From an uncultured Candidatus Saccharibacteria bacterium (lineage in GTDB: Bacteria; Patescibacteriota; Minisyncoccia; Phycocordibacterales; UBA2100): 64,000 bases of DNA. Of the stretch, positions 3,127-42,211 are shown piece after piece. Position 1 is the first letter of the stretch. Each line of letters starts with the position of its first letter. The stretch is taken from NCBI GenBank assembly GCA_964434285.1, contig CAYSUJ010000001.1, positions 104,703 to 168,702 of the forward strand, written 5' to 3'. The notes below the pieces were generated by a model. That model searched no databases. It was not told the DNA's origin and was given only the letters and a program-made list of their open reading frames with translations. The position numbers and the translations under genes were made by a program.

Positions 3127-3212
3127 GGTCAAATAATAACACATTTCTTCTTTGTAAGCAATATTCCGTGGTCATTCATGATACTATACAAATGCAGAAG
3201 TGTGACCCAAAT

Positions 3213-3803: not shown

Positions 3804-3950
3804 TCGCTCCTCTCACGCGCAATGCACAGACACGCGCAGCCGCATCTCGAATCGCGATTTTAGGGTTTATACTGAAACGTAGTTCGGCTATGCCGACTTT
3901 CTCCTCGGCTCTAGCCACTGATCGCTATTATAAGTATTTTTTACACGCAT

Positions 3951-4367
3951 ATGAGAAACATACTTGGCGTTTTCCTTCTTATTATTCTCGTAGGTCCGAG
4001 CGTGGCAGCAGCGCAGATCATTGCAACTCCCTATTGGTGCGGTTGGGGGTGGTCGTCAGCTCCGTGCGTAAGCTACACGCAACCATATTCCTACGGCTCG
4101 TATTACTACCCCGGGAATTATTCGTACTCATATAATTACGGCTACACAAATCCATGCTATCCGGTTTCCTATGATTCCCACGGGAACGTGGTGCAAACAA
4201 GTTGTGGCGTGAATTATCAGTATCAGTACGGTTATCAACACCATCAGTATCCGCAGTACCATTCCTATTACTCTTGGTATGACCACGATCGACACGATGA
4301 CGACCGTAACCGGCGCGACAGAGACAACGACTGGCATAGAGATCGCGACTGGGACAATTATCGCTAG
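3951..4367 (+). CDS. Secreted low-complexity Tyr/Gly-rich protein with RD-rich C-terminus
   Basis: Signal peptide MRNILGVFLLIILVGPSVAAAQ. YSYSYNYGY / QYQYGYQ repeats, 4 Cys, C-terminal DHDRHDDDRNRRDRDNDWHRDRDWDNYR. Confidence 0.45.
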   Translation: MRNILGVFLLIILVGPSVAAAQIIATPYWCGWGWSSAPCVSYTQPYSYGSYYYPGNYSYSYNYGYTNPCYPVSYDSHGNVVQTSCGVNYQYQYGYQHHQYPQYHSYYSWYDHDRHDDDRNRRDRDNDWHRDRDWDNYR

Positions 4368-4405
4368 TGCACAAGGGTATGGAAAAAGTCAAAGTTGAAA
4401 ATCAT

Positions 4406-4543
4406 ATGTTTTCCGGCGGTCTCTGGTGTGTGGGCTGGCTCTTCGCGGTCGGATATCTCCAGCTTTCGTTCTGGAAGGGCGTTCTTGCGATTATCGTGTG
4501 GCCCTACTATATCGGTGTTCATTTCAGTCCGCTCCTTGGATAG
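4406..4543 (+). CDS. Small hydrophobic peptide (45 aa), putative membrane protein
   Basis: ATG at 4406 gives MFSGGLWCVGWLFAVGYLQLSFWKGVLAIIVWPYYIGVHFSPLLG. Its stop TAG is 1 nt before the ATG of the next ORF. Below the size cut-off of the ORF track. Confidence 0.3.
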   Translation: MFSGGLWCVGWLFAVGYLQLSFWKGVLAIIVWPYYIGVHFSPLLG

Positions 4544-4544
4544 T

Positions 4545-4790
4545 ATGCAGAGAACATTCTCCGCCGAAGAGGCTCGCGTGCTTGGCGAGAACATTGGCAT
4601 CTCGTGGTCAGACATCAATCCCGAACAGTTTCGTATGGGACTCGCCGTTGAACTCGAACACGGAAAACGCGATCTTCAAACTAACGTCACCAACGACGAT
4701 CTTGTTTTGACCGCAAAAATTGCCTGGGCACATCTCAAAGAAGTGCCCGATTACTACACGAAACTGAAAGCGATTGAAGGTGAGGAGTAA
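4545..4790 (+). CDS. Hypothetical small soluble protein (81 aa)
   Basis: MQRTFSAEEARVLGENIGISWSDINPEQFRMGLAVELEHGKRDL... The longer ORF start at 4395 overlaps the hydrophobic peptide in another frame. Confidence 0.4.
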   Translation: MQRTFSAEEARVLGENIGISWSDINPEQFRMGLAVELEHGKRDLQTNVTNDDLVLTAKIAWAHLKEVPDYYTKLKAIEGEE

Positions 4791-5045
4791 TGTGCAGTCC
4801 TGCAGAAGGTCGCGTGAGAATAGCCAAAACCAATATTTTTCGGCTACTATACGCCGTTATGGGGCTCTCTATCGGAACCGCGAGTTTGCAGCCCGACACC
4901 CCCTCTATAGCCAGAGCGTAAAACGAATACCTTTTGAGTTCACGATCAAGCTACCGATGCCTCTTCGCACTGGTGTGGACTATGGCTTCCTACCGGGCAA
5001 AAATATTTCAAAAAAGGCACGCTCCGTGGATTGATTTTTCGTTAA

Positions 5046-6020
5046 TTGATGTTGTATATATATGGTATGGTTCCATTCTTTACCAAATATCGTATAGCGC
5101 TTGGTCTCATAAGTATCATCGCCGTAGGTTCGGTAGCGTTCGGCGTGTACCAATTCGTTGAAAATCAGCAGGTTGTCTCGCGACTTGCGTCGCTTGAGAG
5201 CCAGACGGCGGCGATTGCTGCAGCTTTGCAGGCTTCCGGCGCGGTCAGCGAAGAAAACAGATTGCAGCTACAGGAAATCGCCAATCGCGGTGGTGTGATT
5301 GCCCGCTCCCAAGAAGATCTGCTCACGAGCGCTGTGGAGAAAGCATCACCAGCAGTCGTATCCATCGTCATTTCCCGCGACGTCGCGCTCCTAGAGGTCC
5401 AGTACGTGAATCCCTTCGGCGACGATCCGTACTTCCGTGACGTCGGTTATCGCGTGCCCGTATTTCGGCAGGTAGGAACGAGAGCGCAACAAGTGGGCGC
5501 GGGTACAGGGTTTCTCATCCGCTCGGACGGGTATATCCTCACTAATCGTCACGTCGTTGACGACGAACAAGCGGAATACACGGCACTCCTTTCAAATGGA
5601 GAGAAGAAAACGGCGAAAGTCGTATATCGCGATGAACATAACGACATCGCGATCCTCAAGATCGACGGAAGCGGCTACTCCGCGATTCAGCTCGGTAACT
5701 CCTCAGCGCTAAAGCTTGGGCAGACTGTCGTTGCTATCGGTAACGCGCTTGGCGAATACAATAACTCCGTCTCCGTCGGCATAATCTCAGGACTTAATCG
5801 AACAATCGAAGCACAGGATGAGCGGGGTCGTGTCGAAGTGCTTGAAAACGTCATGCAAACCGACGCCGCCATTAACCGCGGCAACTCCGGCGGTCCGCTA
5901 CTCGACCTCTCTAGCAACGCAGTCGGAGTGAACGTCGCGGTCGACCGCGGTGGCAGCAACATATCATTCGCAATTCCCATCGACATCGTCAAATCGATCA
6001 TTGATCGAATACTACCGTAG
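5046..6020 (+). CDS. Trypsin-like serine protease, S1C (HtrA/DegP-like) family, membrane-anchored, no PDZ domain
   Basis: N-terminal TM helix. Catalytic triad motifs TNRHVV (His), DIAILK (Asp), GNSGGPL (Ser). Protein ends right after the protease domain. Confidence 0.8.
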   Translation: MMLYIYGMVPFFTKYRIALGLISIIAVGSVAFGVYQFVENQQVVSRLASLESQTAAIAAALQASGAVSEENRLQLQEIANRGGVIARSQEDLLTSAVEKASPAVVSIVISRDVALLEVQYVNPFGDDPYFRDVGYRVPVFRQVGTRAQQVGAGTGFLIRSDGYILTNRHVVDDEQAEYTALLSNGEKKTAKVVYRDEHNDIAILKIDGSGYSAIQLGNSSALKLGQTVVAIGNALGEYNNSVSVGIISGLNRTIEAQDERGRVEVLENVMQTDAAINRGNSGGPLLDLSSNAVGVNVAVDRGGSNISFAIPIDIVKSIIDRILP

Positions 6021-6022
6021 CT

Positions 6023-6622
6023 ATGCAACATGAGGACATTACACTTATTGAAGAAGCGAAGCGCGAACCGGCGAAGTATGAAGCGCTGTATACGAAATAC
6101 GCGGATCGCGTGTTCAATTATTTCTGGTATCGCACCGGGCACGACTGGGCGTTGTCCGAGGATTTGATGCAAGAGACATTCTTGCGCGCATTCCGGCATC
6201 TCAAAAAATTCAGGAATCGCGGGTATTCGTATCTCACGTACCTACTGAACATCGCGCACAATCTCCTTGTCGACCATTACCGCAAGCCAAAGAGCATTCC
6301 CGTCGAAGACTTGCCGACAGACGCCGTGCCGTATGAAATCACGGCGGATCTGGTGCGGAAGTCGGATGCGGAGTCGCTCTGGCGAGCCATCCAGACCCTG
6401 CCGCAACGCAACCGTGACGCGCTTCTCATGCACTATCAGGACGACAAACCGATCAAGGATATCGCTCAAATCATGAATACCTCGGAAAATTCAATAAAAC
6501 TCAACCTGTCGCGCACTCGCAAGAAGCTAGCCGAGCATCCCTATCTTAAGGACATAGGCGGCTTTGTCCAGAAGAAGCGCAAACCCACAAAGGCTCGGTT
6601 TCTCAGGAAAAAGAAAGGGTGA
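6023..6622 (+). CDS. RNA polymerase ECF-type sigma-70 family sigma factor
   Basis: Region 2 (EDLMQETFLRAFRHLKKF) and region 4 HTH (IKDIAQIMNTSENSIKLNLSRTRKKLAE). Starts 2 nt after the protease stop. Confidence 0.8.
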   Translation: MQHEDITLIEEAKREPAKYEALYTKYADRVFNYFWYRTGHDWALSEDLMQETFLRAFRHLKKFRNRGYSYLTYLLNIAHNLLVDHYRKPKSIPVEDLPTDAVPYEITADLVRKSDAESLWRAIQTLPQRNRDALLMHYQDDKPIKDIAQIMNTSENSIKLNLSRTRKKLAEHPYLKDIGGFVQKKRKPTKARFLRKKKG

Positions 6623-6639
6623 CACCTTTTGGCGTCACG

Positions 6640-6725
6640 CACGTTTAATAGAGTGTAAGCGGTCAGATGGTCTGCCGGAAGGCAGCGGTCGAACCATCGG
6701 AGAAACGACGGTGGGGCTCTTTATT
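6640..6725 (+). ncRNA. ffs: Candidate small SRP RNA (4.5S-like, ffs); ends approximate
   Basis: GCGGUCAGAUGGUCUGCCGGAAGGCAGCGGUCGAACCAUCGG resembles SRP RNA domain IV: GGUCAG 5' strand, GGAA tetraloop closed by CUGCC/GGCAG, GCAGC 3' strand. Followed by GGGGCUCUUUAUU. Confidence 0.4.
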
Positions 6726-7045
6726 GAGCGATCATGAATACAGCGATTCGTTGCGCAGAACAGTTTGCTAAGACGCTTCGGAAATTCATTCGTTCAACGT
6801 CCGATGCGGTTTAGCTTGGGACCCTCGGGTTCCCGTCTCAAAGACGTCCGAAGTGGTTAGCATCTCTTCTGCCGTATCAACAACTGAATATTGTTAGGTA
6901 ATGAAATTATCTTGAGTGCCACGCGTATGGCGCTGACCCAAGGGGGTAACCGTAACGGCATCCTTGGGTTTAACCTGCAATTCACCGCATCTTTGTAAAG
7001 TTGCAATAACAGGTCGACATTATCAACATCTAATCCGATACCACT

Positions 7046-9722: not shown

Positions 9723-9753
9723 AAGCCGCGACGCAAAGCGTCGCGGCTTTATT
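9723..9753 (+). terminator. Rho-independent terminator
   Basis: AAGCCGCGACGC-aaa-GCGTCGCGGCTT followed by TATT. Confidence 0.6.
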
Positions 9754-37744: not shown

Positions 37745-38812
37745 CTAGAGACCTTCTTTTTGCAGGGTTTCAATTGCTGCTTTAGCAGCACGCGAGAGCT
37801 TCTTCGGAAATTCAATGTCAACGCGCACTAATAGATCGCCTCGATTTCCTCTACCATACGGCACGCCCTTGCCGCGCAAGCGGATGAGTTCACCATGAGT
37901 GACACCGGCGGGAATATCGATTTTGGTATCTCCCTCCAATGTGTTGAGGTTGTGCTCACCTCCGAGCAATGCCTCAGTTAGCTTAACCGAAAGTGCTGTT
38001 ACCAGATTGTTGCCCTCGCGCGCGAATAAGCGGTCTGGTTTTACGTGTACTTTCACATAAAGATCACCCGCAGGAGCGCCTGTCGCAGCTTCACCGCGTC
38101 CCGGCATCCGAATCATTTCGCCGTTTTCCATGCCCGCGGGTATAACCACGTGCACTTCTTCTTGCCGCTTAAGAACTCCTTCACCGCGACATACACTACA
38201 GTGTTCCTTGGGTACGTCCCCTCTTCCTTTGCAGGTCGGACAAGTGCGCGTTGAGGTGAAGGTGCCGAAGAATGTGCTCCGGGCCTCCTTCATGCTTCCC
38301 TTCCCCGCACACGCGCCACACTGCGTCATGCCTGCACCTTTCTTCGCGCCCGTACCTTCGCAGGTTTCGCATGCGCCGAGCTTCGTGATGAGCACCCGAC
38401 GCTCTGAACCGAATATTGCATCCTTGAAGGGGAGTTCGACGTCTATAGAAATGTCACGCCCTCTACGAGCGCGAGACTGGCCCCCGTTGAACACATCGCC
38501 AAAAATATCGCCAAGGTCAAATTCGAACGCCTGACCATTCTGAAAACCTTGAAAACCAGAAAAATCAAAGCCACCGAAGCCTTGCCCGAATGGGTTACCA
38601 CCGCCTGCTTGATACTGGCCAAATTGATCGTATTGCGCGCGCTTCTGTTTGTCGGAGAGCACCGCATACGCCTCGCTCACCTCCTTAAACTTCGCCTCGT
38701 CTCCCCCCTTCTTGTCGGGATGATACTTGTGCGCAAGAGAGCGGAACGCTTTCTTTATTTCGTCTTCACTTGCACTTTTTGCAACGCCGAGAATGGAATA
38801 GTAATCCTTCAT
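37745..38812 (-). CDS. dnaJ: Molecular chaperone DnaJ
   Basis: J-domain with HPD (KYHPDKKGG), G/F-rich linker, four CxxCxGxG zinc-finger repeats. Confidence 0.95.
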
Positions 38813-38861: not shown

Positions 38862-40709
38862 CTAAGAGTTTTGAGTACCTTCTTCGGGCGGTTTCTGCTC
38901 AGAGGTTGATTGTTTCTGCATCGCTTCTCCGATAGCACTCATCGCACTTGAGACCGCCTCTGAAGCTGAACTGATAGTAGTAACATCTGTTCCAGTGCGC
39001 GCATTTTTGAGTGCATCGATTTTTTCCTGCACATTCTTGCGGATATCCTCACTCACTTTCTCTCCATGGTCTTTGAGGGCCTTTTCGGCTGCATAGACCG
39101 TATGGTCCGCAGCATTTTGTGCCTCGATAAGTTCGCGCTTCTGTTTGTCGCTCTCGGCGTTAGCCTCTGCTTCTGCGCGCATCTTTTCAATATCAGTGTC
39201 AGTAAGCCCTGAACGCTGCTCAATGCGTATGGACTGCTCTTTTCCGCTCGTCTTATCTTTTGCTTTCACCGAGAGGATTCCGTTCGCATCGATGTCGAAG
39301 GTAACCTCAACCTGCGGTGTACCGCGCGGAGCCGGTGGAATGCCATCGAGATTAAACTTTCCGAGCGATTTATTATCCGCAGCCATCGGGCGTTCACCCT
39401 GTACCACATGGATCTCTACCGACGGCTGATTGTCTGCGGCGGTGGAAAATACTTGAGATTTTGAGGTTGGAATTGTGGTATTCCGCTCGATAAGCTTGGT
39501 TGCAACGCCGCCCAAAGTCTCAATCCCGAGTGAAAGTGGAATGACGTCAAGAAGAAGCACGTCTTTCACATCGCCTTGGAGGATTCCTCCCTGAATTGCA
39601 GCACCGAGTGCTACAACTTCGTCCGGATTTACGCTCATGTTTGGCTTCTTGCCAAAGAATTTCTCCACAGCGCCCTGGATAGCAGGCATACGTGTCTGAC
39701 CACCGACAAGAATCACTTCGTTGATATCGCCGACTTTGAAGGGAGATGCCTCCATTGCGCGCTTGGTGATTTCCATTGCACGCGTGACAAACTCTTCAGT
39801 GAGCTCTTCGAGCTTCGCCCGCGAGAGTTTCAGGAGAAGGTGACGTGGGCCTGAAGCATCAGACGTGATGAAAGGAATGTTGATTTCTGTTTCCACTGCG
39901 CTTGAGAGTTCAATCTTTGCCTTTTCTGCGGCTTCATCGAGACGTTGGCGCGCGAGAGGATCCTTACGGACGTCGATACCGCTCTCTTTCAAGAATTCCT
40001 CGGCGATCCAATTGATGATCTTCTGGTCAAGATCCTTGCCCCCGAGGTGCGCGTCGCCGTCTGTTGAGCGGACCTCAATCACATCGTCCCCCACCTCAAG
40101 AACAGAAACGTCGAAGGTACCGCCGCCGAAGTCGAACACTGCGATTTTCTCGTTTTTCTTCTTATTAAATCCGTAGGCAAGCGCTGCTGCTGTCGGCTCG
40201 TTGATAATGCGCTTCACTTCAAGACCCGCGATCTTTCCCGCGTCTTTAGTCGCGGCGCGTTGTGCGTCGTTGAAATATGCTGGCACGGTGATAACCGCCT
40301 CAGTGATGGTTTCGCCCAAGCGCGCTTCCGCATCTCGTTTCAGTTTCTGGAGGATCATCGCGGAAATCTCCTCAGGAGAGTGCCATGAATCTCCCATCTG
40401 CACCTCGATACCGCCGTTCTGCGATTTACGCATTTCAAAAGGCACTGCAGCCTTGTCTTTCTGGACATTGGCCTCATCGAACGTGTGACCAATGAAGCGC
40501 TTTATCTGATAAATCGTGTTCTTGGGGTTCGTGACCGCCTGGCGCTTAGCGAGGAGACCGACGGAGCGTTCGTTGGTTTTAGAGAGTGCGACGATAGAAG
40601 GAGTGGTGCGTGCGCCTTCTGCGTTCTCAAGGATGACGGGTTCACCGCCTTGCACCACAGCCATGGCCGAATTAGTAGTTCCGAGATCAATTCCGAGTAT
40701 TTTTGCCAT
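38862..40709 (-). CDS. dnaK: Molecular chaperone DnaK (Hsp70)
   Basis: [18 protein letters not shown]..., [10 protein letters not shown]. The ORF-track N-terminal extension is translation of the upstream REP palindrome. Confidence 0.95.
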
Positions 40710-40761
40710 ACTTTTCCATTTTACGAGTAATTTTTTGCTAATTATATTCCCGTCTTTGATT

Positions 40762-40784
40762 TTGGCAAGGTCTGACCTTGCCAA
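40762..40784. repeat. REP-like perfect palindrome TTGGCAAGGTCtGACCTTGCCAA (copy 1)
   Basis: 23-nt palindrome immediately downstream of the RAYT stop and ~50 nt upstream of the dnaK start. Confidence 0.7.
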
Positions 40785-40793
40785 ACCGCTATC

Positions 40794-41504
40794 TCACCCC
40801 AGCCAAAGCTCTTTAGAGAGCTTTTTTTCAAGACTACCCTCCGCAACTTCCTGCGCAAACTCTCGAAATCCCTGACGATCACCAAAAATTTCTCGAAGAA
40901 GATCGCTATCAAGGAGTCCGGAGGCCCGCGCACCTGTGTACGAGCCAAGACTTGAAAAAGGATCTTGAAGTGCCCAGTCAAACGCATTATCAAACTCATT
41001 CATCGCCTTACGATAACCACCTGGGTATCGTTCCAGCGGGTTCTTGACTTGAATATACGCCGCAAGATATTCAAGATATTCATCTGAATCCACGGTGCGC
41101 GATCGATATGCGCCCTGAAAGATGGTGCCGCGCTCATTGTATTTCGTATTGAAGTACATAGACATGCTTGTGCAAAGTTTTTGCATAAATTTGCTGACAC
41201 CCCCTTCGCGAGTCTCTTGCACCAGCAGATGAAAATGGTTATCCATAAGGCAATACGCAAGTATGGCGGTATAAGGCTTTTGTTCCCCCCAAGAATCCGG
41301 GCGCTTAAAACCCTCTCTTATATGCTGGGGGGTAATATCTCGGTCCCAATGTTGAGGAGCGTTTTCGTCGTTCAGATAACGTAAGAGACGTAGAAAGCGC
41401 CATTTATCGGATTCATCACGAACGATGTTCATACCTCGCGCACCGCGCTTAACGATGTGTACATATGAACCCACGGTAAATGGCTCCTTCCTCATTTGAC
41501 GCAT
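40794..41504 (-). CDS. REP-associated tyrosine transposase (RAYT; IS200/IS605-like Y1 HUH transposase)
   Basis: HUH motif YCLMDNHFHLLVQE. Catalytic Tyr region EYLAAYIQVKNPLE. Perfect SD AAGGAG 6 nt upstream of the ATG at 41502-41504. Flanked by inverted copies of the same palindrome. Confidence 0.75.
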   Translation of the reverse strand: MRQMRKEPFTVGSYVHIVKRGARGMNIVRDESDKWRFLRLLRYLNDENAPQHWDRDITPQHIREGFKRPDSWGEQKPYTAILAYCLMDNHFHLLVQETREGGVSKFMQKLCTSMSMYFNTKYNERGTIFQGAYRSRTVDSDEYLEYLAAYIQVKNPLERYPGGYRKAMNEFDNAFDWALQDPFSSLGSYTGARASGLLDSDLLREIFGDRQGFREFAQEVAEGSLEKKLSKELWLG

Positions 41505-41523
41505 ATTATCTCCTTTCATGTGC

Positions 41524-41546
41524 TTGGCAAGGTCAGACCTTGCCAA
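41524..41546. repeat. REP-like perfect palindrome TTGGCAAGGTCaGACCTTGCCAA (copy 2)
   Basis: Same palindrome as copy 1 in inverted orientation. Confidence 0.7.
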
Positions 41547-41550
41547 AACG

Positions 41551-41627
41551 ATCGACCAGATCGACCAGACCAGACCAAATCAGATGGACCGAACCAACTG
41601 CAACTTGATCAACCGGATCGACCAAAA
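41551..41627. repeat. Degenerate A/C-rich tandem repeats built on GACCA/GATCGACCA
   Basis: atcGACCAGatcGACCAGaccaGACCAaatcagatgGACCgaaccaa...ggatcGACCAaaac, between REP copy 2 and the grpE stop. Confidence 0.45.
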
Positions 41628-42158
41628 CTACGCACCAACGACGACTTGTGCTGGGCGGAGTATGCGGTTACCCGAGCAATATCCGCGGCGGATGATACGT
41701 ACGATCACGCCCGCCTCCCCTTCTGCTTCTTGTATAGCCTCGTGAATGTTCGCATCAAACACCTCTCCGCTTTTGCCGAATGCTGAAATGCCGTGAGATT
41801 CGAGGACTGAGAGGAGTTGTGCATGAATGCCCTCCACTCCAGAACGCCACACTGGGTCAACCGTGCCCCAAGCTTCTCCCTGCATTGCCATATCAAAACT
41901 GTCGAGCGCAGGGATGAGTTCTTCTACGAACGATTCCTTACCAAATGCGCGCGCGCGAATAAGCGCATCAGTCAATTCTTTTTTCGCGTTCACTGTGTCA
42001 GCTTTACAGCGCTGCCAGCCATCCAAGTATTCATCTCGTTCTCTTTTAATCACCGAGAGTTCGTCGCGAAGTTTCGAAAGTTTTGCTTTTGCAGAGCCAA
42101 TATCCCCGAATTCATCTTCGGGTTCGAAATCGAATTCCACATCGGGGACGGCACACAT
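41628..42158 (-). CDS. grpE: Nucleotide exchange factor GrpE
   Basis: Coiled-coil N-terminus (LSKLRDELSVIKRERDEYLDGWQRCKAD). C-terminal GrpE beta-domain (GEVFDANIHEAIQEAEGEAGVIVRIIRRGY). Confidence 0.85.
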   Translation of the reverse strand: MCAVPDVEFDFEPEDEFGDIGSAKAKLSKLRDELSVIKRERDEYLDGWQRCKADTVNAKKELTDALIRARAFGKESFVEELIPALDSFDMAMQGEAWGTVDPVWRSGVEGIHAQLLSVLESHGISAFGKSGEVFDANIHEAIQEAEGEAGVIVRIIRRGYCSGNRILRPAQVVVGA

Positions 42159-42177: not shown

Positions 42178-42211
42178 AAAACAAAAACCCCCGAAAGGGG
42201 GTCTTGTTTTT
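42178..42211 (-). terminator. Rho-independent terminator after rpsI
   Basis: Minus strand: AAAACAAGACCCCC-uuuc-GGGGGUUUUUGUUUU. Confidence 0.6.

Follow-up and report, generated by a model that had tools for sequence, protein, structure and literature searches.

A palindrome-flanked HUH/Y1 transposase-type gene between grpE and dnaK in a patescibacterium and its relatives

In a 64,000-nucleotide stretch of contig CAYSUJ010000001.1 (positions 104,703 to 168,702; hereafter the window), from an uncultured Candidatus Saccharibacteria bacterium, a HUH/Y1 transposase-like gene lies between two short palindromes and separates grpE from dnaK. The same arrangement recurs between grpE and dnaK in other genomes, is missing from the nearest relatives of the window genome, and has a history decoupled from that of its hosts. 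We think it probable, with some room for doubt, that the gene and its palindromes form a self-contained mobile cassette of the REPtron or TIRtron type, which is exchanged at one address and rebuilds the dnaK promoter there. Y1 enzymes of the RAYT type (REP-associated tyrosine transposases, REP standing for repetitive extragenic palindrome) are viewed as domesticated, vertical and single-copy, and whole REPtrons are viewed as immobile. Here, in contrast, the gene has a single copy and a single address, yet appears to be gained, lost or swapped among close genomes, and the essential gene downstream would keep a promoter. What is new is a family of the candidate phyla radiation (CPR) with a Y-x4-NP tyrosine motif, the recurrent and phylogeny-uncoupled occupation of the grpE-dnaK spacer, and a hairpin arm as the conserved putative -35 element of dnaK. 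A literature search returned no paper connecting RAYT or Y1 enzymes with CPR bacteria.

Presence, absence and exchange at the grpE-dnaK spacer

The gene order on the minus strand of the window is rpoA, rplQ, rplM, rpsI, grpE, the Y1 open reading frame (ORF), dnaK and dnaJ. An earlier reading of this DNA, made from its letters alone (the original prediction), had placed a transposase gene between grpE and dnaK on their own strand and stated that it separates the two, and both statements hold. The closest relatives of the window genome were found by a GrpE search (loci other than the window are given by their L numbers), and they form a genus-level clade around the window with identities of 91-96% for DnaK, 88-98% for S9 and 94-97% for L17. 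The nearest relatives have DnaK 93-96% identical to that of the window, and in the clade members L097, L095 and L089 grpE and dnaK are adjacent, with a spacer that contains no cassette. Relative to these genomes the cassette is an insertion. When the window was compared with L097 and L095 by blastn, homology ended at 41629 (L097) or 41635 (L095) and resumed at 40710, so that the whole intergenic region differs. All the cassette-free genomes of the clade, also those with another gene in the slot, have in common a 75-nt promoter and leader whose sequence is highly conserved, cTTGACAAGCAC...GGTGTATAATCACGCACGAAAAAGATTACAAG...ATG.

A cassette of this kind was found between grpE and dnaK in eleven other genomes or contigs, and the order grpE-Y1-dnaK is seen in L085, L087, L088, L092, the contig of P0022, L002, L003, L004, L007 and L019. 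The three cassettes of the clade (window, L088 and L092) have Y1 proteins that are 54-62% identical to one another and three different palindromes, and DnaK among the cassette-bearing genomes of the clade is 91-94% identical. Between the window and L085 the Y1 proteins are 75% identical and the 23-mer palindrome is the same, and the host is distant (DnaK 81%, GrpE 55%). Over ten cassettes there is no correlation of Y1 identity with DnaK identity (Mantel r = -0.18), and GrpE identity correlates well with that of DnaK (rho = 0.69). Because the phylogenies of cassette and host are decoupled in this way, we conclude that the cassette appears to enter the grpE-dnaK spacer, to leave it or to be swapped there as a unit, at one address. 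The Y1 ORFs are intact and their catalytic residues invariant in every cassette examined.

Co-transfer of the flanking gene ends together with the cassette was considered and rejected, as the C-terminus of GrpE and the N-terminus of DnaK in the window are host-like: both resemble those of the clade, not those of L085, up to the gene edges.

The spacer also accommodates another gene. In L093 (3016-3549), L094 (2094-2627) and L098 (4036-4569) a GNAT acetyltransferase gene of 177 aa fills the slot, with grpE on one side and the conserved dnaK promoter on the other, and in L093 and L094 it overlaps the grpE stop. The grpE-dnaK slot looks like a hot spot at which genes insert.

The Y1 protein, its hairpins and its relatives

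The features of the locus, in window coordinates, are as follows.

41628-42158, minus strand: grpE, the left host flank, 176 aa from ATG 42158 (Pfam GrpE, 114 bits)
41549-41627, minus strand: spacer of about 78 nt from the grpE stop to the 5' palindrome, with short tandem repeats
41524-41548, no strand: 5' (Y1-proximal) palindrome, TTTTGGCAAGGTCTGACCTTGCCAA in gene orientation, of which 41524-41546 is the perfect 23-nt part
41503-41530, minus strand: putative promoter P1 of the Y1 gene, from a consensus scan
40794-41504, minus strand: Y1/HUH transposase-like gene, stop at 40794-40796, 236 aa from ATG 41504 or 233 aa from ATG 41495
40760-40785, no strand: 3' (dnaK-proximal) palindrome, TTTGGCAAGGTCAGACCTTGCCAAA in gene orientation, of which 40761-40785 is a perfect 25-nt palindrome
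40741-40768, minus strand: putative dnaK promoter P2, from a consensus scan
38862-40712, minus strand: dnaK, the right host flank (Pfam HSP70, 814 bits)
37745-38812, minus strand: dnaJ, the gene after dnaK

The sequence TTGGCAAGGTCWGACCTTGCCAA occurs exactly twice in the 64 kb, at 40762-40784 with T at its centre and at 41524-41546 with A at its centre. This agrees with the original prediction, which had also put one copy about 50 nt upstream of the dnaK start; the dnaK-proximal 23-nt copy ends 49 nt ahead of the ATG. No further copy was found in the window at up to 3 mismatches (0 expected from 100 shuffles) or at up to 5. Positions 40760-40784 and 41524-41548 together make a perfect 25-nt inverted repeat, with arms that are 100% complementary. 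Each copy folds on either strand into a stem of 10-11 bp with a 3-nt loop, and as single-stranded DNA the 5' palindrome gives a hairpin of -10.6 kcal/mol (z = -3.5) and the 3' palindrome one of -11.6 kcal/mol (z = -5.9). Other syntenic loci that include the 5' flank have a palindrome at the same position there. The orientation of the two copies, as judged by the centre base, varies among loci, and so the word "inverted" is given no mechanistic weight. Beside the hairpins of 10 syntenic loci there is no conserved tetranucleotide tag or cleavage motif. The hairpins were also considered as intrinsic terminators, a reading that was rejected: neither is followed by a T-tract, and a terminator scan lists neither of them.

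In one of the related loci (L087, 3925-3975) a partial duplicate of the left arm of the palindrome, cgtacgTTGTGCAAGTCAtacgTTGTGCAAGTCAGACTTGCACAAC, lies upstream of the palindrome itself, which suggests slippage or abortive copying at the hairpin.

The protein matches the Pfam profile Y1_Tnp (PF01797) over residues 82-154 with 43.5 bits, against a gathering cutoff of 23, and with the NCBIfam equivalog REP_Tyr_transpos (NF047646) it scores 33.9 bits, below the cutoff of 80. The start common to its homologs is ATG 41495, which gives a protein of 233 aa (MRKEPF...). In the numbering of an alignment of 31 homologs, which are 47-76% identical, the HUH motif is N91-H92-F93-H94 and the catalytic tyrosine is Y152, in YIQVKNP. 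The N-H-F-H motif, Y152, K156 and N157 are invariant in these homologs, and the tyrosine motif Y-I-Q-V-K-N-P (Y-x4-NP), one residue longer than Y-x3-NP, is found in 31/31; the alignment also has an (L/I)FQG motif and a nearly invariant PFSS. An AlphaFold2 model (pLDDT 92) has an extra helical C-terminal region of about 80 aa. Among solved structures in the PDB, the best fold found by Foldseek is 4ER8 (E = 2e-5), which is E. coli TnpA_REP bound to a REP hairpin, with the IS608, ISDra2 and IS200 transposases next; the top 23 matches are all TnpA_REP, IS608, ISDra2 or IS200 transposases. Y152 aligns with the catalytic Y132 of ISDra2 TnpA, and NHFH with the ISDra2 motif DHVH, where the weak ISDra2 matches that are all a sequence search of the PDB returned (E about 0.4) are useful just for residue alignment. 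A helix-turn-helix (HTH) or DnaA_C-like domain was not matched by Pfam in the Y1 protein at E <= 0.01. The ORF is single-copy in the window and no tnpB adjoins it.

By profile, residues and fold, the protein is an intact enzyme of the HUH/Y1 transposase type, as had been predicted. The peptide YCLMDNHFHLLVQE cited in that prediction is present in the ORF, and only its length of 237 aa needs correction, by one to four residues (233-236 aa). The protein is predicted to be an active-looking HUH/Y1 single-strand DNA nuclease-ligase, and by analogy with TnpA_REP and with the TnpA of IS608 and ISDra2 it presumably binds and cleaves the hairpins.

In all, 891 Y1 homologs were found, and where they are named nearly all belong to Kaiserbacteria, Taylorbacteria or Paceibacterota (CPR/Patescibacteria). 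The layout of palindromes was surveyed at 80 genome loci encoding Y1 homologs, most of them from CPR/Paceibacteria. At most of these loci the start codon has a palindrome about 25 nt ahead of it, and a matching one follows the stop at 0-20 nt. When palindromes with a 1-nt centre and at least 10/11 pairs are counted, the gene flanks have 2.83 per kb and the remainder of these loci 0.116 per kb, a 25-fold enrichment. At its apex the palindrome is widely conserved as (A/G)GTC-W-GAC(T/C); the lower stem varies among lineages yet stays complementary, and 11/11 of its pairs have changes on both sides. The type of palindrome tracks Y1 similarity, as in the pairs WIN/L085 (WIN being the window's own cassette), L002/L019, L092/L003 and L004/L007. 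One genome (MFLL01, Kaiserbacteria RIFCSPHIGHO2_02_FULL_55_25) has two Y1 paralogs, L004 and L026, with a different palindrome each. One of these paralogs is at grpE-dnaK and the other elsewhere, the second being followed by a doublet that resembles a REPIN (a REP doublet forming a hairpin).

REPIN-like doublets and extra copies distant from the gene are found in L011, L006, L008, L009, L038, L063 and L084. Three doublets and one single copy fall within 10.6 kb in L011 (1030-5724), and in L084 the window-type palindrome is at 873 and 4476, 3.6 kb apart, on a 5.4-kb contig with no Y1 gene. A metagenome scan for the exact palindrome of the window added a single cassette, that of L085, and four hairpins that stand alone in unrelated contexts.

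Y1 homologs with palindromes also stand beside unrelated genes, namely pilin/pilC, GAPDH, ndk and ribosomal protein L25. The original prediction had argued that a palindrome unique to its spot is more likely an operator than a REP, and this argument is not valid, as the palindrome follows the Y1 gene and varies with the Y1 type. Because the palindromes go with the gene to unrelated loci and change with the type of Y1, they are part of the Y1 cassette and not of heat-shock control. Their description as REPs stands in one respect, since they are cognate hairpins in a layout that recurs at some 80 loci with the above enrichment; within the window they are not repetitive, and there "REP" is a misnomer. 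Among IMG/VR viral contigs no relative of the cassette was found, and there is therefore no sign of a phage vehicle.

A second recurrent address is seen in L005, L006 and L020 (about 3900-6900 in each), where the cassette lies between type IV pilin-like and PilC/GspF-like genes; the palindrome of L020 is unlike that of L005 and L006. Homologs of 29-36% identity lie on contigs binned as Crocinitomicaceae and Gammaproteobacteria (L057, L045, L058, L059 and L079), and among these L057 and L079 have the same layout of hairpin, gene and hairpin. Either the family reaches beyond the CPR or these contigs are mis-binned.

Promoter geometry ahead of dnaK

The consensus scan of the gene strand found two sigma-70-like sites, each of which begins in the 3' arm of a palindrome. 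P2, upstream of dnaK, has the -35 hexamer TTGCCA (40763-40768) and, after 16 nt, the -10 hexamer TATAAT (40741-40746), a consensus match of 11/12. P1 has the same -35 hexamer (41525-41530) and, again after 16 nt, TAATAT (41503-41508), a match of 9/12. Because the -10 hexamer of P1 is only 7 nt before ATG 41495, the arrangement suggests that the Y1 mRNA is leaderless. In many members of the family the upstream hairpin is likewise followed by a -10 and then an ATG, with variable geometry.

In all ten grpE-dnaK cassettes for which DNA is available (10/10), a -10 hexamer that matches at 5/6 positions or more lies 16-17 nt beyond a hairpin hexamer TTGCCA or TTGCAC, and the chance of this geometry is 1.4-5% per locus. 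The -10 hexamer is TATAAT in six of the cassettes, TAAAAT in two, and TACAAT and TATACT in one each, and the spacer sequences differ. After downstream hairpins at other insertion sites -10 hexamers are not enriched, for which reason the -10 seems to be host-derived and not cassette-borne; this suggests that it belongs to the host dnaK and that the hairpin arm replaces the native -35. The cassette-free relatives have a conserved dnaK promoter, TTGACA-N19-TATAAT, with no palindrome, and insertion of the cassette likely rebuilds this promoter. The original prediction had seen in the dnaK-proximal palindrome a possible operator, terminator or RNA stabiliser. A regulatory role is probably right, in the form of a promoter -35 element; the role of terminator falls away with the missing T-tract.

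It had also been stated that no CIRCE (controlling inverted repeat of chaperone expression) operator lies ahead of the chaperone genes, and indeed the CIRCE inverted repeat, TTAGCACTC-N9-GAGTGCTAA, has no match in the 64 kb at up to 3 mismatches. The window palindrome differs from the CIRCE/HrcA operator in sequence and in having a 1-nt centre.

The dnaK leader holds a further inverted repeat of the type ATTAC...GTAAT, which is imperfect in the window (40718-40733), perfect in L019 (5769-5784, AAATTACACGTAATTT) and of the form GATTAC...GTAATC in cassette-free relatives (L095, about 3140-3190). This repeat could have a regulatory role of its own at dnaK, either as an operator or as an RNA structure.

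Known systems, rival explanations and neighbouring sequence

The cassette looks like a REPtron or a TIRtron, that is, a Y1 enzyme with cognate hairpins on its flanks. The REPtron of E. coli consists of TnpA_REP (a RAYT of subclass 2.2) with flanking REPs or bacterial interspersed mosaic elements (PMC3333891, PMC3479197, PMC8266576). Shared with it are the HUH/Y1 fold, the single gene between cognate palindromes, an apparent co-evolution of palindrome and enzyme, and the dispersed copies and doublets of some relatives. The window protein is only about 14% identical to E. coli TnpA_REP, however, and has Y-x4-NP where class 2 is defined by Y-x3-NP (PMC6006769); its palindromes are perfect, with a 1-nt centre, and lack the 5' GTAG (GT[AG]G) tag at the foot of the hairpin. 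The repeat family of a RAYT has no counterpart in the window, with 0 extra copies in 64 kb, although some relatives have dispersed copies. Transposition of a whole REPtron is said not to occur (PMC6006769), whereas the window cassette seems to move as a unit. For RAYTs mostly vertical inheritance has been described (PMC5581495), whereas here the gene is missing from the nearest relatives and Y1 and host identities are uncorrelated. Membership of the canonical RAYT/TnpA_REP group, to which the gene had originally been assigned, is not supported, because the protein falls below the NCBIfam cutoff, its tyrosine motif is another, there is neither a GTAG tag nor a repeat family in 64 kb, and inheritance does not look vertical; its motifs are instead like those of TIRYT/subclass 2.1.

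TIRYTs (tyrosine transposases associated with terminal inverted repeats, TIRs), the enzymes of TIRtrons, are TnpA_Y1 subclass 2.1 and group 1 of Bertels (PMC3733652, PMC6006769, PMC5581495), the most like insertion sequences (IS) among the non-IS200 RAYT groups (PMC5581495). At the level of motifs the likeness consists of NH[YF]H, FQ(G), a length of about 235-238 aa and a C-terminal tail with conserved Ser-Ser, here PFSS. In both, the gene lies between terminal inverted repeats, which may be self-complementary, and TIRYTs are often found in genomes without a REP family. The window palindrome does not contain the TIR consensus GGGGWSAS, and its enzyme has no Pfam match to an HTH or DnaA_C-like domain. 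REP-like hairpins were not found for subclass 2.1 by Quentin et al. (PMC6006769), whereas around homologs of the window type they are the rule. The TIRYT and RAYT surveys (PMC3733652, PMC6006769, PMC5581495) are without Patescibacteria/CPR, and the window protein is likened to subclass 2.1 by motifs alone.

With the IS200/IS605 elements (IS200, IS608 and ISDra2) the cassette shares fold and catalytic residues, a minimal size of about 0.7-0.9 kb, subterminal hairpins at both ends, and presence or absence among relatives. It differs from them in a tyrosine motif that ends in NP instead of Y-x3-Q, in lacking tnpB, and in being single-copy at one address in many genomes, where an IS occupies many sites per genome. 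IS608 and ISDra2 insert beside a specific short target, which is a precedent for site choice, and IS ends can bear outward -35 hexamers. As in mobile elements that supply promoters, a terminal repeat would give the -35 here, a resident -10 would complete it, and the neighbouring gene would be driven. The difference is that the arrangement is fixed in 10/10 cassettes, be they independent or diverged, at a single essential chaperone gene, and that a native -35 would be replaced without a silent gene being switched on. REPs have been proposed as promoters before (PMC3733652).

In the explanation that we favour, a Y1 gene that is RAYT-like and closest to TIRYT/subclass 2.1 lies between two palindromes of 23-25 nt, which its enzyme would recognise as hairpins on single-stranded DNA. 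The cassette replaces the entire grpE-dnaK spacer, including the native dnaK promoter and leader, and varied Y1 and palindrome types of the family occupy this spacer in many Paceibacteria. It would come, go or be exchanged in one piece, with grpE-dnaK as its strongly preferred address, and would not pass down with its host as a housekeeping gene does. The 3' arm of the upstream palindrome, as a -35-like element, would drive the Y1 gene together with a -10, probably giving a leaderless mRNA; the 3' arm of the downstream palindrome, 16 nt from TATAAT, would rebuild the dnaK promoter, which would let a compact genome tolerate the insertion. The anatomy of the locus, the conserved catalytic residues, the fold, the tie of palindrome to gene across the family, the presence or absence among close relatives, the decoupled phylogenies and the conserved promoter geometry are observed; that the enzyme binds and cleaves the hairpins, that the promoters are active, and how integration at the same site comes about are inferred. 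If confirmed, it would offer a tractable case for target choice by Y1/HUH enzymes, for mobile elements that persist harmlessly in extremely small CPR genomes, and for the control of dnaK in bacteria without a recognisable CIRCE/HrcA operator. The finding also brings Patescibacteria into the RAYT/TIRYT world, the catalytic motif there being a distinct one, Y-x4-NP.

Several points weigh against this explanation. No direct evidence of mobility was found in the form of near-identical copies, excision junctions or target-site signatures, and the 64 kb contain only one copy of the cassette. Synonymous divergence (dS) is saturated in every pair, so that purifying selection is not quantifiable, and the covariation of the lower stem was counted on sequences chosen for being palindromes. 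The calls of P1 and P2 are consensus matches only, and the geometry of the upstream P1 is not conserved across the family. Exchange by homologous recombination in the conserved ends of grpE and dnaK, of about 20 nt, is possible at this resolution. The spacer, which takes the GNAT gene too, may be just a permissive hot spot, with selection, not targeting, explaining the recurrence.

A bolder proposal, which we regard as possible but rather doubtful, is that the cassette is mobile between genomes as a unit and homes to one chromosomal address, the -35 region of the dnaK promoter, swapping the native -35 for its hairpin arm. If this were true, dnaK expression would depend on a hairpin- or cruciform-forming sequence recognised by the Y1 enzyme. 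In CPR bacteria without CIRCE, chaperone expression could in this way be coupled to DNA supercoiling, to temperature or to the amount of single-stranded DNA, and the cassette would be the first REPtron or TIRtron with demonstrated site-specific mobility.

Two further sequence matches were noted. Taken with its flank, the right half of the upstream palindrome in the window (CTGACCTTGCCAAGCACA) is identical to the empty site of L095 (CTGAACTTGACAAGCACA) at 16/18 positions, and in L088 a host-like heptamer, GCACACT, is placed 13 nt further from that locus's own hairpin. Either the target may imitate half a hairpin, or the "native" promoter may derive from an older cassette, or the matches could be partly due to chance.

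Among the rival explanations, it is unlikely that the gene is a domesticated RAYT, that is, a vertical, single-copy host gene that maintains REPs or REPINs throughout the genome, its position between grpE and dnaK being an old inherited accident. The single copy in the window, the intact catalytic residues across the family, grpE-Y1-dnaK synteny down to 81% DnaK identity and the dispersed copies and REPIN-like doublets of the seven loci listed above would all suit such a gene, as would the mostly vertical inheritance described for RAYTs (PMC5581495); yet no dispersed copy exists in 64 kb even at 5 mismatches, the gene is missing from the nearest relatives, Y1 proteins within the clade are less alike (54-62%) than those of the window and a distant host (75%; Mantel r = -0.18), and the NCBIfam RAYT cutoff is not reached. 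We hold it to be decidedly unlikely that the palindromes are double-stranded operators through which the Y1 protein, or some other dimeric regulator, represses its own promoter and that of dnaK in place of HrcA/CIRCE. Similar palindromes flank Y1 homologs beside pilin/pilC, GAPDH, ndk and L25, the cassette-free relatives use a plain TTGACA/TATAAT promoter for dnaK without any palindrome, and a lower stem that is free to vary if paired fits a hairpin better than fixed protein contacts. To this must be opposed the overlap of both palindromes with -35 hexamers, the dnaK-proximal geometry kept in 10/10 cassettes and the absence of a CIRCE site from the window. The helical C-terminal region of about 80 aa recalls the HTH-like tails reported for subclass 2.1 (PMC6006769), but Pfam finds no HTH domain in it. 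Operator action could nevertheless be a secondary effect of the cassette.

That the hairpins act in RNA, as REP-like stabilisers of 3' ends or as attenuators that partition a single grpE-Y1-dnaK transcript, appears very improbable as the whole explanation, although such a role is not exclusive of the one we favour. The stem-loops are stable on either strand and stand just past the coding regions of grpE and Y1, and REPs are known to stabilise upstream mRNA (PMC3733652); but there is no T/U tract after the hairpins, the terminator scan omits both, and an action in RNA leaves unexplained the distance of 16-17 nt to the -10 as well as the link of the palindromes to the Y1 gene. A dying insertion sequence of the IS200 type, left as neutral junk in a permissive spacer, is scarcely credible. 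Terminal hairpins, one tnpA-like gene in about 0.8 kb, and presence or absence among relatives are what such an element would leave, and the GNAT gene in the same slot indicates that the spacer tolerates insertions. It would not be expected, however, to have an intact ORF with catalytic residues invariant in every cassette examined, nor a promoter geometry that is precise in 10/10 cassettes; multi-copy or near-identical copies are missing, and the tyrosine motif ends in NP and is not the Y-x3-Q of IS200.

Around the cassette, G+C content is 46-47% over approximately 40600-41400, which covers most of the cassette and some of dnaK, and the flanks have 50-54%. Between the end of grpE and the 5' palindrome (41549-41627) the spacer consists of short repeats, GACCA with a period of 5 and GATCGACCA-like units with a period of 9, that are unique in the 64 kb and not present in other cassettes; a counterpart of this spacer is missing in L085, L092 and L002-L019. 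Other palindromes with a 1-nt centre at 9736, 13724 and 58739 of the window (for example AAGCCGCGACGCAAAGCGTCGCGGCTT) are GC-rich, terminator-like and unrelated to that of the cassette. Searches of the window with Rfam at gathering thresholds and with a tRNA scan gave no matches.

The longest ORF for grpE starts at GTG 42176, and the gene call in L001 is 176 aa. Ahead of the gene, TATACT comes after the rpsI terminator hairpin with its T-run (42184-42205) and stands 8 nt from ATG 42158, and the relative L089 has the same arrangement of terminator hairpin, TATACT and ATG. Both the gene call and this promoter-like hexamer speak for ATG 42158, and not GTG 42176, as the probable start of grpE, and the grpE mRNA is possibly leaderless or nearly so.

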